A stretch of 29,435 bases of DNA, taken from Elusimicrobiales bacterium. Lineage in GTDB: Bacteria; Elusimicrobiota; Elusimicrobia; Elusimicrobiales; UBA9959. This document shows, piece by piece, positions 15,001 through 21,000 of this stretch. Position 1 is the first letter of the stretch; the number at the start of each line of letters is the position of its first letter. The stretch is taken from positions 1 to 29,435 of the forward strand of contig JBMFKQ010000021.1 in assembly GCA_049972095.1 (NCBI GenBank). The letters are read 5' to 3'. Position numbers: made by a program.

Positions 15001-18000
15001 CTATAAATAGATTTATTTTGATAGGCTTTTCTATAAAATCCACAACATTTGGTTCCATCTTTATCATCTCTTTTGTGCTTCTATCTATGTATTTCCCTGT
15101 TATTACTATAACGGGTAAGGAAGTCTTTCCTTCTATCTGTAACTCCCTAAGTATTTCAAACCCACCATATCCAGGAAGCATAAGGTCAAGGATTATCAGA
15201 TCATAGTCCTTCTGTTTTATTCTTTCTATTGCTTGTTTTCCTGTGGATATTTTTTCAGTTTTAAATTTTTCATTTTTCAAAGCAACATCAAGAAGCTCTC
15301 TTATAGCCTCATCGTCATCAACTATAAGAATTGTCTTACTCTCAGGTTCTGAAAGGTTCATAAAAATGCCTCATTAGATAATTTCTTATCAGTAATTTGT
15401 TGTTACAAGTGTTTCCGTAGTCTGAACTCCATGAGTTGATCTGATTTCCCTTAATATGAGGTTTGATAATTTATCCAATGTATCAGCTTCAACTATCAGT
15501 ATTGCATCCCATGCGCCGAATGTTAGATAAACCTCTTTTATACCTCTTATGTTTTTTATGTTCGATATAGCTTTTTGTTCAAGCCCTGCTATGAGCTTGC
15601 ATAGCACAAATGCAACCATATTACCCCCTTCCCTCGGGTGTTTAGCTTTAACAACCCGCTTTTTTATATTATATAATAAAAAGTTGTTTTTAAAACTCTA
15701 AATTTATATAATATTTTGTAGTTTGTGATCTATTCTAAATAATAAAAATTGAGGAGGTTTATATGGGTGTTAAAATAGGAATAAATGGTTTTGGAAGGAT
15801 AGGAAGACTTGTTGCAAGAGCTGTTTTTGAAAGGGGGATAAAGGATTTAGAGATAGTTGCAGTTAATGATCTGACTGATGCAAAGACAAATGCTCACCTG
15901 TTTAAATACGATTCTATTCATGGTAGATATGAAGGAGATGTTAGGGCTATTTCTGATGAGGAGATCTCTATTGATGGGCAGAGGATAAAGGTTTTAAAGA
16001 AGAAAGATCCAGCTGAACTTCCCTGGAAGGATTTAGGTGTTGAGATTGTTATAGAATCAACTGGGCTTTTTACGGTTAAGAAGGATGGAGTTAATAAGAA
16101 GGGAAAAGAGGTCAAAGGTGCAGAAAATCATATAACCAAGGGAGGAGCAAAGAAGGTTATAATAACAGCACCTGCAGAGGGCGAGGATATAACCATAGTA
16201 ATGGGTGTAAATCATGATAAATATGACCCAAGAAGTCACAATGTTATCTCAAATGCGAGCTGCACAACAAACTGTCTTGCACCTATTGTCAAGGTGATAC
16301 ATGAAAAATGGGGTATAGAGAAGGGACTTATGACAACAATCCATTCATACACAAATGATCAGAGAATGCTTGATATGACTCATTCAGATCTTAGAAGAGC
16401 AAGAGCTGGTGCTATGAATATGATACCAACAACAACGGGTGCTGCAAAAGCAATAGGACTTGTTATGCCTGAACTTAAAGGTAAGCTTGATGGATTTGCA
16501 ATAAGAGTTCCTACACCTAATGTCTCAGTAGTTGATCTTTCAGCAACGATTAAAAAAACAACAACTGCCGCGGATATAAATGCTGCGCTTAAAGAGGCAA
16601 GCGAAAATTCGCTTAAAGGAATTTTAGGATATACTGATGAACCACTCGTATCTATGGATTTCAATCACTGTCCTTTAAGCTCTTTCGTAGATGGCAGCTC
16701 AACAAAGGTAATAGGAGGCGACTTTATAAAGGTTCTTTCATGGTATGACAATGAATGGGGATACTCAAATAGGGTTGTTGATCTTGCTCTCTACATAATA
16801 AAGAAAGGGCTTTGATGTTTTAGGAGGAATTTATGGTTAAAAAAAACAGAAGGAGAGTTGTGATAATGGGTGCTGCGGGGAGGGATTTTCATAACTTCAA
16901 TGTTTATTATAGGGACAATGAGGAATATGAGGTTATTGCTTTCACGGCTCAGCAGATACCGAACATTGCAGGTAGAAAATATCCTTCCTCTCTGGCAGGC
17001 AAGCTTTATCCTGATGGAATTCCCATATACGATGAAAGTGAATTGCCTGATATTATAAAAAAATATAGGGTTGATGAGGTTGTTTTTGCGTATAGTGATG
17101 TGAGTTTTAATTATGTTATGGAGAGGGGTTCTATTGCTCTTGCATGTGGTGCTGATTATAGACTTTTAAGTGGTCAGCATACTATGATAAAATCAACAAA
17201 ACCGGTAATAGCTGTCTGTGCTGTTAGAACTGGTTGTGGTAAAAGCCAAACATCAAGAAAAATAGCCTCAATACTTAAAGAGATAGGCAAAAAGGTAGTT
17301 GTTGTTAGGCATCCTATGCCTTATGGCGATCTTGAAAAACAAGTATGTCAGAGATTTGCCTCAATAAAGGATATGCACGATCAAAACTGTACTATAGAGG
17401 AGATGGAGGAATATGAGCCTCATATCAGTGAGGGGCATATAGTCTATGCAGGTGTGGATTATGAAAGAATATTAAGGGATGCAGAAAAAGAGGCAGATGT
17501 TATATTATGGGATGGTGGTAATAATGATCTTCCTTTCTACAAGCCGGATCTTCATATAGTTGTGACTGACCCTTTAAGGGCAGGGCATGAAAATCACTAC
17601 CATCCAGGTGCGACAAACCTTAGGATGGCAGATGTTGTTATAATAAACAAGGTTGATACAGCAGAGCCTGATGATGTTGAAAAGGTCAAGACAAACATAA
17701 TTTCAGCAAATCCTGATGCGAAGATAATAGAGGCTGAAAGCCCTGTTGTGGTTAAGGGAGATGCCTCTCAGATAAAAGGGAAAAAAGTGCTTGTGGTTGA
17801 GGATGGTCCGACACTCACTCATGGTGAGATGAACTATGGTGCTGCCTATGTTGCTGCCAAGGAGCATGGGGCAGGCGAAATAGTAGATCCAAGGCCCTAC
17901 GCTGTTGGCTCTATAAAGGCTGTGTATAAAAAGTATACTCATCTTGAAAATATACTTCCTGCCATGGGCTATGGAAAGGTTCAGATGGATGAGTTGAGAA

Positions 18001-21000
18001 AAACTATTGAAAGGACACCTTGTGATCTGGTTCTCATAGGGACACCAATAGATCTTGCATTGCACCTTAAGTTTAACAAACCCTCAATGAGGATAACATA
18101 TTATCTCAAAGAAAGAACATCTCCAGCACTTAAAGAGATAATAGAAGGTGTATTGAAGGAAAAAGCAAAGGCTTTAAGGGAGGTAAAATGACAATAAGGC
18201 CAGTTCTTAAACTCAAAAAGCTTCAAGATATGGGCATATCTAAGGGCTCAATGGTGCTTGTAAGGGTTGATTATAATGTGCCGATAAAAGATGGAAGGGT
18301 CAGTGATGATACAAGAATAAGAGAAACTGAGAAGACAATAAAATATCTTCTCACACGAGATGCAAAAATAGTTTTAATATCCCATCTTGGAAGGCCAAAG
18401 GGAAAGTTTGATCCAAAGTATAGCCTTAAATCCCTTAGGGAGGATGTGGAAAGGATAATGGCTGCAAAAACCCATTTTGTTGAGGATTGTATAGGTCCGG
18501 AGGTTGAAAAGGCAAAATCAAGGCTTGGGATAGGTGAGATACTTCTCTGTGAAAACCTAAGGTTTCATCCAGAGGAGGAAGAAAATGATGAGGGCTTTGC
18601 AAGAGAGCTTGCTAAGGGATGTGATTATTTTGTTCAGGATGCCTTTGGTGCAATACACAGGGCTCATGCCTCAACAACTGCTATTACGAAATATCTTCCA
18701 TGCTGTATAGGATTTCTGCTTCAAAAGGAGCTTGAGTATCTTGAAAAAATAATGACAAACCCATCAAAACCATTTGTTGCTGTCATAGGTGGTGCAAAGG
18801 TCAGCGATAAGATAGATGTCCTTATGAGTTTGCTTGATAGAGTTGATACACTTATAATTGGTGGAGCAATGGCTTATACATTTCTAAAAGCCCAGGATGT
18901 GAATGTTGGTAATTCTGTTGTTGAAAGTGATAAGATAGATGAGGCAAAAAAAATAGTTCTAAAAGCATTTAAAAATGGTGTTGAGCTTATTCTTCCTGCT
19001 GATCATCTTGTCGTTAAAGAGATTAAGGATGATGCCCAAACACAAACCACACAGTCAATGGCAATACCTAATGGATGGATAGGTGTGGATATTGGTGAAA
19101 GGAGTATATCTATTTTTAGTGAGAAGATACTTTCGGCAAAGACGATATTTTGGAACGGACCTCTTGGAATATTTGAGATAGACAGGTTTGCAAAAGGAAC
19201 TATTGCTCTTGCAAAAGCAGTTGCTGAGGCAACAAAGAACGGTGCTGTGAGTGTGCTTGGTGGTGGTGATACTTTAAGTGCCCTAAAAAAATCCGGTGTT
19301 AAGTCTGAGGAGATATCACATTGCTCAACAGGTGGGGGTGCAAGCCTTGAGTTTGTTGAGGGTAAGATTTTACCAGGACTTGAGGCACTTAGCAGATAAG
19401 GAGGTTTTGGATGTTTAGTTTTTTTCTCATTATTCATGTAATTATATGTTTTCTACTTATCATTTCTATACTTCTTTTCCAGACAAGTAAAGGTTCAGCA
19501 CTTAGTATGTTTGGTGGAGGAGGTGATTCTCTTTTTTCATCTCCAAGCGGAAGCTCATTCATAAAGAAATTTACTCTATATCTTGCGATTGCCTTTGCAG
19601 TTAATTCAGTTATTTTAACTCTGCTTTATCCTACAAGACACAGGTCTGTTCTTTATGATTCTCCGCCCCCTCCTGTGTCTAGTGAAAAAAAATAGATAAG
19701 GAATGGACTTTTTAAAGGCTGTTTCAGCGTTATTTTTTCTTCTTACAAATGCTGTTTTTGTTCTTATAGAGTTTGCAATAGTTAGAGTAAGAAAAACAAG
19801 AATAGAAGAATTTGCACAGAATGAGAATAATATATTTGCAAGAACCTCTCTTGATATAATAAATAATATCAACTCATATCTTGCATCAATTCAGCTTGGT
19901 ATAACTGCATCAAGTATAGGGCTTGGGTGGATTGCGCAGCCATATGTGGCTTTTGTTATTAGCAGAGCTATTCCTGATTTTTCTATATTCTACTTAAAGA
20001 TATCATCCTATTCAATCTCTCTTTTAATTTCATTTTTTACGGTAACATTTTTTCATATAGTTTTTGGTGAGCAGGTTCCAAAGTATATCGCGATATCATC
20101 TGCTGAAAAGATAACACTTGTTTTTTCAATTCCTCTCAAGATGTTTTATAAAGCAACCTATTATCCAATGCTTTTAATAAACAAAACATCCGAATTTTTT
20201 TCATCATTTTTAGTCTCAAAGATATCAGATGATACATCTCATTCAGAGGATGAGATAAAATTGATACTTTCAAAATCTGAGGAGTTTGGTCGTATTTCAC
20301 TTCACAGATTAATGATGTTTGAACATCTTTTTGATTTTGGCAAGACCTCTGTCAAAGAGGTTATGGTTCCTGTAGATAGGATTGTTGCCTTGAAAAAAAG
20401 CATAAGTTTTGATGATTTTTTAGATACTATAAGAAAATTCAAGTTTTCAAGGTATCCTGTGATCGATGAGAATTCTAATTATTTAGGTTATGTGCATGTT
20501 AAGGATGTTATTATAAACCTACCTATATCAAGATGTGTTGAAAGATTCAATCTGCTTGACTATATTAGACCTATTGTTAGGGTAGGAGAAAAGGAAATGA
20601 TAGAGAGGGTTTTGAGAATTGTCCAGGAAACAAATCAGCCGATCCTTCTTGTAGAAAATGATAAAAAAGAGATAACAGGTATAATAACTGTTGAGGATAT
20701 AATAGAGGATATTACCGGAGAGATAAGGGATGAGTTTGAAAAAAAATCTGCTGTAAGGCTTGATGAGATTTTCTGTGTTGAGGGAAGTGTTGTTGATATT
20801 AAATCATCCGATAGATTTTCAGCTATAAATGAGATGATAGATAAGCTTTATTCATCCGGTTTTATAGCTTTAAGGGAAGAGATATCAAAAAGGATTATAA
20901 AAAGAGAAAAAGAACTTTCTACTGCCATAGGTCATCAAATTGCTGTTCCACATGCAAGAATAGAGGGACTTAAAAGTGCTATTATTTCTGTTGGAATAAG

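Follow-up and report, generated by a model that had tools for sequence, protein, structure and literature searches.

Where does a genome with a complete set of pyrimidine genes and no detectable carbamoyl-phosphate synthetase obtain its carbamoyl phosphate? The question is raised by one gene in the window (the whole stretch of DNA analysed, 29,435 nucleotides), which the initial annotation took for an arginine synthetase gene, arcE. We argue that ArcE and an ornithine carbamoyltransferase (OTC), acting on imported arginine, would be the main source of carbamoyl phosphate for pyrimidines, a reading to which we give a probability of roughly 0.7. The activity, the direction of flux and the arginine uptake we infer from the observed gene content, orthology, operon layout and phylogenetic co-variation.

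The arcE locus

The open reading frame is wedged between gap and pgk as first described, and its exact coordinates, strand and length were reproduced. The features of the locus are as follows.

15648..15677, + strand: putative operon promoter, sigma-70-like (TTAACA-18-TATAAT), 11 of 12 consensus positions, about 85 nt upstream of gap
15763..16815, + strand: gap, glyceraldehyde-3-phosphate dehydrogenase, first gene of the operon (open reading frame; Pfam Gp_dh_N and Gp_dh_C)
16833..18191, + strand: arcE, predicted arginine synthetase, 452 aa (open reading frame; 64% identity to Thermococcales ArcE)
18188..19399, + strand: pgk, phosphoglycerate kinase (open reading frame; Pfam PGK, 498 bits)
19411..19695, + strand: secG, beginning 11 nt past pgk (open reading frame and Pfam)

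These four genes form a tight operon in which arcE is presumably co-transcribed with the glycolytic genes gap and pgk, and no terminator-like site was seen on the + strand between gap and secG. The arcE gene has an AGGAGG Shine-Dalgarno sequence 6 nt upstream of its ATG, while its stop codon overlaps the start codon of pgk (ATGA), which suggests that pgk is translationally coupled to arcE. The region holds 23 sigma-70-like sites where shuffling predicts 22.3, which makes the consensus match weak evidence for the promoter when taken alone.

Identity of the protein

The only Pfam label on the protein is cobW, as had been noted, and the match is a weak one (22.9 bits, cut-off 20.7); none of the NCBIfam models reached its cut-off. 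Compared with two Thermococcales orthologues other than TK2200, the homologues of P. chitonophagus and P. horikoshii, the protein has 279/436 (64%) and 286/446 (64%) identical residues, both alignments being full-length and collinear with one single-residue gap each. Identities within the ArcE family range from 59 to 85% across bacteria and archaea. All invariant columns of a family alignment of 32 sequences are kept, and the protein carries a Walker A motif (RTGCGKSQT, R132-T140) and the motifs WDGGNND (226-232) and EDGPTLTHG (323-331). Judged by its sequence, the product of 16833..18191 is a bacterial orthologue of arginine synthetase, so the earlier naming stands, and it would catalyze the reaction Arg + ADP + Pi <-> citrulline + ATP + NH3.

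The AF2 model of the protein (pLDDT 91) has cyclic-2,3-diphosphoglycerate synthetase (cDPGS) as its nearest solved fold in Foldseek, many close homologues carry the database name "cyclic 2,3-diphosphoglycerate synthase", and the position between gap and pgk is kept across the order, all of which would suit a cDPGS-like enzyme working on a glycolytic intermediate. The match to cDPGS is only partial, however (E 1.4e-9; in the fold alignment, 16% identity and TM 0.45), against 64% over the full length to Thermococcales ArcE. Outside the order, moreover, the orthologues adjoin genes for OTC and carbamate kinase (CK) and not glycolytic genes: of 71 arcE loci from outside the Elusimicrobia, 30 have a CK homologue and 26 an OTC no more than 6 kb away. 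We consider a cDPGS-like function barely credible.

Partner genes and missing enzymes

The partner enzymes proposed for ArcE were all located, with agreement on the coordinates of the first two.

C15:249-1250, - strand: OTC (NF002470, 566.8 bits, cut-off 545)
C8:21896-23002: carbamate-kinase-like (CK-like) protein (TIGR00746, 275.2 bits, cut-off 358.25)
C11:40956-42170: ornithine aminotransferase (OAT)
C30:8140-9774: P5C dehydrogenase

The arcE, OTC and CK-like genes are on different contigs, and the link between them is one of co-occurrence only. The OTC is 62-67% identical to OTCs within arcE-arcC-arcB clusters (loci L076, L080, L089, L093 and L105), and the genome has just three carbamoyltransferase matches, namely this OTC, PyrB and a truncated OTC fragment. 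Among possible consumers of carbamoyl phosphate, the full pyrimidine set previously claimed is indeed present, with pyrB (268 bits, cut-off 237), pyrC (316 bits, cut-off 279), pyrD, pyrE and pyrF all found. HypF (726 bits, cut-off 466) is a second consumer, and [NiFe]-hydrogenase-like genes are also present. The genome further encodes a NupC-type nucleoside transporter, and salvage could meet part of the pyrimidine demand.

The reported lack of carB, arcA and argG was borne out in an assembly of 58 contigs that is 96.5% complete with 0.45% contamination. In this genome the carB profile, which recovers carB in 14 of 14 control genomes, scores 53 bits at best (cut-off 1027). There is no match to arcA, and the best matches for argG and argH, at 31.7 and 24.6 bits, leave both unfound in this genome. 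Neither argB, proB, proA nor ProC was found in it; its AA_kinase family comprises PyrH, an aspartate-kinase-like protein and the CK-like protein, and its only Aldedh family member is the P5C dehydrogenase. Since no ArgB, ProB or ProA was found, ornithine should not be makeable from glutamate.

Without argG and argH, ArcE might instead be anabolic, the only arginine-forming enzyme of the organism (citrulline + ATP + NH3 -> arginine). The 2024 report on the Thermococcus kodakarensis enzyme (PMC11032458) describes ArcE as reversible and as able to support the formation of arginine from citrulline in vivo, and its authors raise an anabolic role for some bacteria that have carbamoyl-phosphate synthetase (CPS) and ornithine synthesis. 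Here, however, no CPS (carB), ArgB, ProB or ProA was found, and thus neither carbamoyl phosphate nor ornithine should be makeable from central metabolites; an anabolic ArcE would need imported citrulline. OAT and P5C dehydrogenase, for their part, indicate ornithine breakdown, and the equilibrium is toward arginine breakdown, with a deltaG0' of -6.8 kJ/mol at 80 C as reported in PMC11032458. An anabolic ArcE thus seems to us quite improbable.

Distribution across the order and family

We considered 101 genomes of the order, including 49 each from the organism's own family and its sister family, along with a phylum sample of 251. In its own family, pyrB is present in 44 of 49 genomes, carB in 2, ArcE in 40, OTC in 47 and the CK-like gene in 46. 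ArcE is therefore far commoner in the family than the initial count had implied (3 of 3 in the family, 8 of 111 sampled), and it occurs in 27/251 genomes of the phylum. The earlier statement that carB is missing from five of five relatives holds at the level of the family (2/49); the handles given for those relatives do not correspond to the ones used here, under which G007, G029 and G073 are genomes of other families, with carB.

Could carB, and argG and argH with it, simply have dropped out of an incomplete assembly? The 58 contigs and 96.5% estimated completeness leave room for this, but the search for carB came up empty in 47 of the 49 family genomes, the majority of which are 90-100% complete, as against 145/251 phylum genomes above its cut-off, and in the order both arcA and argB stand at 0/101 (argB control 14/14). 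We judge such a loss very unlikely.

The presence of pyrB co-varies with that of carB or arcE. Every pyrB genome among the 101 with an assembled gap-pgk locus holds one or the other. Where pyrB is present without carB in the organism's own family (42 genomes), ArcE is found in 36; five of the remaining six also lack pgk, so their gap-pgk locus is unassembled, and in the sixth pgk starts at contig base 31-34. In the two genomes of genus g86, gap directly adjoins pgk, arcE being cleanly lost, and pyrB and pyrF are both absent, while OTC and the CK-like gene are retained. Of the 49 genomes of the sister family, 4 have carB, and it is these 4 and no others that have pyrB and pyrF. These counts span related, non-independent genomes and reflect few events, namely one loss of arcE with the pyr genes and one family-level loss of carB. 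G263 keeps ArcE with neither pyrB nor pyrF seen, so ArcE is not retained for pyrimidines alone.

The carbamate-kinase-like protein

The main rival to supply by ArcE and OTC is a reversed carbamate kinase. The CK-like enzyme would then make carbamoyl phosphate de novo from NH3, CO2 and ATP, and ArcE would serve only in ATP-yielding arginine catabolism. The CK-like protein falls below all curated cut-offs, among them the carbamate kinase cut-off remarked on in the initial annotation, and no genome of the order (0/101) exceeds that of TIGR00746, a low score explained by four lineage-specific insertions. It forms a separate sub-family, present in 46/49 family genomes and 35-41% identical to the CKs adjoining arcE elsewhere, and its gene is unlinked to arcE and OTC. 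In 14/49 family genomes, argG occurs without carB, which may point to a non-arginine source for part of the carbamoyl phosphate or citrulline. The CK-like enzyme could have another role, carbamoyl-phosphate synthesis included.

Against this, the protein matches P. furiosus CK 1e19 at E 3.7e-54 and keeps the core motifs HGNGPQVG, GGGGIPV, AVIDKDLA and GSMGPK as they stand in solved catabolic CKs. The equilibrium of the carbamate kinase reaction lies on the side of ATP. In genus g86 the CK-like gene and OTC are still present, but arcE has gone, and pyrB and pyrF with it. G210 lacks the CK-like gene but has carB. In T. kodakarensis, disruption of arcC had little effect and CK was no substitute for ArcE/ArcB, according to PMC13260591. 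On this balance we think a reversed carbamate kinase unlikely to be the main supply.

Proposed pathway

We return to ArcE and OTC as the preferred source, the course first proposed for pyrimidine carbamoyl phosphate and one that gene content, absences, co-variation with pyrB, and HypF support. The case is strengthened by the lack of ArgB, ProB and ProA, by the co-variation of carB or ArcE with pyrB in the 101 genomes, and by HypF. In this small, reduced genome, imported arginine would be converted by ArcE to citrulline, with formation of ATP and ammonia, and OTC would phosphorolyse the citrulline to ornithine and carbamoyl phosphate. The latter could be used by aspartate carbamoyltransferase for pyrimidines, by HypF for the CN ligands of [NiFe] hydrogenases, or by the divergent carbamate kinase for a second ATP, and ornithine would proceed to glutamate through OAT and P5C dehydrogenase. 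Imported citrulline would sidestep ArcE.

We think it somewhat probable that there was a family-wide swap of carbamoyl-phosphate synthetase for arginine breakdown, with arcE built into the core glycolytic operon of gap and pgk, where it would belong to a unit for "substrate-level phosphorylation". Pyrimidines and hydrogenase CN ligands would then have arginine from outside the cell as their obligatory precursor, and the loss of arcE would take de novo pyrimidine synthesis along with it. If so, what was found for Thermococcales in 2026, namely that carbamoyl phosphate derives from arginine and not from bicarbonate and ammonia, holds for bacteria as well, and arginine auxotrophy and arginine-dependent nucleotide synthesis are predicted for an uncultured Elusimicrobiota family, a predicted need that helps in the design of cultivation media and metabolic models. 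Public records that label homologues "cyclic 2,3-diphosphoglycerate synthase" or "GTPase" probably describe arginine synthetases, and the conserved gap-arcE-pgk operon offers a simple trait marker.

Comparison with known systems

The cDPGS structures (PDB 8oru, 8ork and 9sxb) share with ArcE a P-loop kinase-like, multi-domain character, but the sequence match is good over residues 216-326 only, with about 16% identity, and the genomic context in other phyla differs. The arginine deiminase (ADI) pathway (arcABC) has the same OTC and CK steps and likewise turns arginine, overall, into ornithine, NH3, CO2 and ATP. It differs in using the hydrolytic ArcA, where an ATP-forming, reversible ArcE is predicted here, in an order with arcA at 0/101.

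The closest counterpart is ArcE (TK2200) of T. kodakarensis, described by Michimori, Yokooji and Atomi in 2024 (PMC11032458), a member of the same family at 64% identity as judged from Thermococcales orthologues other than TK2200. In both settings no ADI is found; TK0871, TK2158 and TK2200 are separate genes, and arcE, OTC and CK are likewise unlinked here. That arginine can be the source of carbamoyl phosphate is not a new idea: it has been demonstrated genetically in T. kodakarensis by Michimori et al. (May 2026; PMC13260591), who report that the arginine synthetase pathway supplies carbamoyl phosphate in Thermococcales, that arcE or arcB knock-outs are pyrimidine auxotrophs, and that an arcC knock-out has little effect. 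The Elusimicrobiales genome resembles this case in having arcE, arcB and complete pyrimidine genes with no CPS (carB), ASS or ASL found, in offering carbamoyl phosphate a second outlet through HypF and [NiFe]-hydrogenase-like genes, and in its predicted arginine auxotrophy. In Thermococcales, CPS is tied to the presence of ASS/ASL, whereas argG without carB is seen in 14/49 genomes of this family. Ornithine feeds proline in T. kodakarensis but would be turned into glutamate here by OAT and P5C dehydrogenase, ProC not having been found. Finally, while the archaeal case is a genetic one, ours is a bacterium studied by comparative genomics, of low GC content (33%) and presumably mesophilic, with its arcE in a gap-arcE-pgk operon kept across one order of Elusimicrobiota.

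The arcE gene and its product

The feature under study lies between the glycolytic genes gap and pgk:

15763..16815, gap, 5' neighbour of arcE (Pfam Gp_dh_N/C)
16833..18191, + strand, arcE, uninterrupted open reading frame of 452 amino acids (ORF call)
18188..19399, pgk, 3' neighbour of arcE (Pfam PGK)

The ORF call, together with the Pfam matches of the neighbours, confirmed the position given for arcE in the initial annotation to the nucleotide. An AGGAGG Shine-Dalgarno sequence is found 6 nt 5' of the arcE ATG, the start codon of pgk shares bases with the arcE stop (ATGA), secG follows 11 nt 3' of pgk, and no terminator-like site was found on the + strand from gap to secG. 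The top promoter-like site (15648-15677, 11/12 consensus match) is upstream of gap, promoter-like sites being no more frequent in this region than in shuffled sequence. Co-transcription with gap and pgk would link arcE expression to other steps of substrate-level phosphorylation.

Directly 3' of secG (19703-21223, + strand) is an unusual regulatory fusion of 506 amino acids, with a CNNM/CorC-type transmembrane domain, CBS domains and a C-terminal PTS EIIA-2 (PtsN-like) domain. Three further window ORFs on the - strand, at 12274-14286 (670 aa), 3367-4635 (422 aa) and 26825-27754 (309 aa), have no Pfam match at E <= 1e-8.

Domain models say little about the arcE protein: Pfam returns a weak cobW tail alone (22.9 bits), and no NCBIfam model scores above its cut-off. 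A homologue search returned at least 8000 candidates, every one scored at E <= 1e-20, under source names such as 'GTPase', 'predicted GTPase' and 'cyclic 2,3-diphosphoglycerate synthase'. As stand-ins for TK2200, the characterised arginine synthetase (ArcE) of Thermococcus kodakarensis, we took other Thermococcales orthologues, including some from a second homologue search seeded with an Aciduliprofundum ArcE; the available Discussion of PMC11032458 places arcE homologues throughout that order. The arcE protein is 64% identical to the Pyrococcus/Thermococcus chitonophagus homologue (279/436) and 64% identical to that of P. horikoshii (286/446), each with one single-residue gap. The 64.2% identity to TK2200 reported initially is thus corroborated through two other orthologues rather than reproduced on TK2200 itself.

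Family members on contigs of named organisms (80 of the 594 confirmed loci), bacterial and archaeal alike, all share 59-85% identity with the arcE protein. Every invariant column of a 32-sequence family alignment is kept, including the motifs RTGCGKSQT (132-140), WDGGNND (226-232) and EDGPTLTHG (323-331). The AlphaFold model is confident (pLDDT 91, pTM 0.90). Its closest solved fold is cyclic-2,3-diphosphoglycerate synthetase (cDPGS; 16% identity, TM 0.45), to which the sequence also gives a partial match (E 1.4e-9); this remote match fits the remark, in the available text of Michimori et al., on a distant similarity between ArcE and cDPGS. The PDB copy that we searched has no ArcE structure. 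We regard the gene as almost certainly encoding an ArcE orthologue. Many ArcE-family proteins, including P0016, P0020, P0145 and P0230 (the P. horikoshii homologue), Pyrococcus among them, carry the public names 'cyclic 2,3-diphosphoglycerate synthase' or 'GTPase', which is probably a systematic misnaming.

Probable source of carbamoyl phosphate in the genome

The source genome (1.44 Mb, 58 contigs, 96.5% complete, 0.45% contamination) holds the following relevant genes:

C15:249-1250, ornithine carbamoyltransferase (OTC), 566.8 bits vs cut-off 545
C8:21896-23002, carbamate kinase (CK)-like, 275 bits vs cut-off 358
C6:4853-5932, PyrB, 268 bits vs cut-off 237
C4:6457-7650, PyrC
C4:7808-8635, PyrD
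C30, PyrE and PyrF, adjoining P5C dehydrogenase
C30, P5C dehydrogenase (TIGR01236), 784 bits vs cut-off 614
C11:40956-42170, ornithine aminotransferase (OAT; TIGR01885), 540 bits vs cut-off 378
C14:30897-33161, HypF, 726 bits vs cut-off 466
C4:53924-55255 and C19:27577-28782, [NiFe]-type large-subunit-like genes, both with Cys motifs

In a profile search of this genome for carB the top score was 53 bits (cut-off 1027; control positive in 14/14), and arcA, argG, argH and proC, searched one by one, were not found in it. The amino-acid-kinase family consists of PyrH, an Asp-kinase-like protein and the CK-like protein, and the aldehyde-dehydrogenase family of P5C dehydrogenase alone; since neither holds such a member, ArgB, ProB and ProA are absent. 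The genome thus offers no path from glutamate to ornithine, a point in favour of flux in the catabolic direction. ArcE is the only visible citrulline-forming enzyme.

Carbamoyltransferase matches number three: OTC, PyrB and a truncated OTC paralogue on contig C37. We considered the last (C37:2025-2501, match C37:2115-2501) as a putrescine or other carbamoyltransferase, and so a further source of carbamoyl phosphate, and rejected this; it is a 128-aa piece with the carbamoyl-phosphate-binding half only, and its identity to the C15 OTC is 81% at the protein and 72% at the nucleotide level. A TGA stands immediately 5' of it and an unrelated ORF 3' of it, and it is probably a pseudogene remnant. 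A decarboxylase in the window (21371-22561), which we considered for ornithine, proved to be LysA (367 bits vs 298). Judging from gene content, OTC acting on citrulline would be the only enzyme of this genome able to release carbamoyl phosphate.

The main rival to this reading is that the divergent CK-like protein may also make carbamoyl phosphate. It matches the solved P. furiosus carbamate kinase 1e19 at E 3.7e-54 and keeps HGNGPQVG, GGGGIPV, AVIDKDLA and GSMGPK. Its sub-threshold score is due to four insertions, common to its family relatives; the CKs linked to arcE in other phyla lack these insertions and share 35-41% identity with the protein. A zinc-ribbon threonine-synthase-like gene lies 3' of it (the two together at C8:21896-24265), as in the relative G282, and several relatives (loci L041, L042, L044) have beside it a second carbamoyltransferase (YgeW model 257 bits vs 453; OTC model 252 vs 281) that the source genome lacks. 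The CK-like enzyme may have come originally from another carbamoyl-compound pathway. The initial proposal of carbamoyl phosphate from arginine through ArcE and OTC is supported, with carB, arcA, argG and argH not found and OTC and pyrB to pyrF present, and we put the probability that ArcE and OTC are the main source at about 0.7.

Proposed pathway

Imported arginine would be converted by ArcE to citrulline and ATP, and OTC would phosphorolyse the citrulline. The carbamoyl phosphate would be split among PyrB, HypF and the CK-like enzyme, while ornithine would pass to glutamate via OAT and P5C dehydrogenase. HypF, which the initial annotation did not list, is a carbamoyl-phosphate-dependent carbamoyltransferase of [NiFe]-hydrogenase maturation. 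One of the two large-subunit-like genes is sulfhydrogenase-like and the other NuoD/Mbh-like; both were located by a motif search. ArcE activity has been demonstrated for TK2200 only, with K = 10.1 and deltaG0' of -6.8 kJ/mol at 80 C in the available text of PMC11032458.

A NupC-family nucleoside transporter (C11:38804-40030) is encoded two genes from OAT, so pyrimidine salvage is possible beside de novo synthesis. A complete lysine-fermentation cluster (kamA, kamD, kamE, kamC, kdd and kce, C7:21264-30042) adjoins a thiolase and a 2-oxoacid:ferredoxin oxidoreductase, and fits an amino-acid-fermenting lifestyle.

Distribution in the phylum and order

ArcE was found in 27 of 251 genomes sampled across the phylum, and carB in 156, 145 of them over cut-off. 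The order sample comprised 101 genomes: the source genome and 49 others of its own family, 49 of the sister family and two of a third.

Occurrence in the order (genomes matched/genomes searched: own family; sister family; third family)
pyrB (over cut-off): 44/49; 4/49; 1/2
pyrF: 45/49; 4/49; 2/2
carB: 2/49; 4/49; 0/2
ArcE: 40/49; 1/49; 2/2
CK-like: 46/49; 1/49; 2/2
OTC (own protein as query): 47/49; 1/49; 0/2
argG: 14/49; 0/49; 0/2

Neither arcA nor argB was found in any of the 101 genomes. The four carB genomes of the sister family are exactly those with pyrB and pyrF. In the own family, pyrB occurs without carB in 42 genomes, 36 of which have ArcE. The other six might be taken as counter-examples, which we rejected: pgk is missing too in five (G120, G226, G265, G269, G280) and starts at base 31-34 of its contig in the sixth (G276), so the arcE locus is unassembled. 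One genus of this family (G255 and G283; loci L139 and L140) has gap directly adjoining pgk, without arcE; pyrB and pyrF are both missing, and OTC and the CK-like gene are kept. Wherever the locus is assembled, the genomes of the order sample that have pyrB also have carB or arcE; these counts come from related, non-independent genomes, and the patterns rest on few events. Among individual genomes, G263 has ArcE and neither pyrB nor pyrF, G275 lacks the arcE locus and both pyr genes, and G282 (83% complete) has pyrF and no pyrB over cut-off.

All 14 argG-holding genomes of the own family (e.g. G204, G212, G253) lack carB and have ArcE. We considered them as proof of a de novo carbamoyl-phosphate source, which they may not be: argB was found in none of the 101 genomes, so they too are without the classical arginine pathway.

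Gene neighbourhoods and evolution of the locus

We surveyed the surroundings of arcE at 80 loci, nine labelled Elusimicrobia and 71 others. The order gap-arcE-pgk is present in 8/9 of the former, the ninth being a short contig. At the 71 others, the 6 kb around arcE include a homologue of our CK-like protein in at least 30 and an OTC in at least 26; the true counts may be higher, since several contigs stop short. The source genome's OTC is 62-67% identical to those of arcE-arcC-arcB clusters (Melioribacter-type loci). Guilt by association of this kind led to the discovery of ArcE, according to the section 'A Candidate Gene' in the available text of PMC11032458.

Every locus of the order with enough flank shows gap-arcE-pgk (16 with both flanks, three cut by contig ends). 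Class-level relatives have arcE at other sites, in one case (L034) adjoining a CK, and in sister-family genomes without arcE gap adjoins pgk in 6/9 loci fetched. In an unrooted FastTree phylogeny of 107 sequences, from which we claim no donor, the Elusimicrobiota copies group together (33 rows, one of them from Acidobacteriota; support 93), the copies embedded between gap and pgk are a subset of 26 rows (support 99), and the Thermococcales are placed elsewhere, with Aciduliprofundum.

Relation to known systems

ArcE was first described in 2024 (Michimori et al., PMC11032458), and ArcE with ArcB as a carbamoyl-phosphate supply for pyrimidines and hydrogenase maturation without carbamoyl-phosphate synthetase (CPS) in May 2026, from T. 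kodakarensis knock-outs (PMC13260591). Elusimicrobia are not mentioned in the available text of either paper, and a full-text literature search for 'Elusimicrobi' with 'arginine synthetase' returned no paper. The ArcE/ArcB scheme is therefore already known, and the present case is a bacterial member of it. New here are the conserved gap-arcE-pgk operon, the loss of carB across a whole family and, in a single genus, the disappearance of arcE together with pyr genes. As far as the available text of PMC13260591 goes, HypF and the [NiFe]-type genes mirror the second carbamoyl-phosphate sink of T. kodakarensis (Discussion). In the Thermococcales, according to the published text available, CPS and ASS/ASL go together, whereas 14/49 genomes of the own family have argG without carB.
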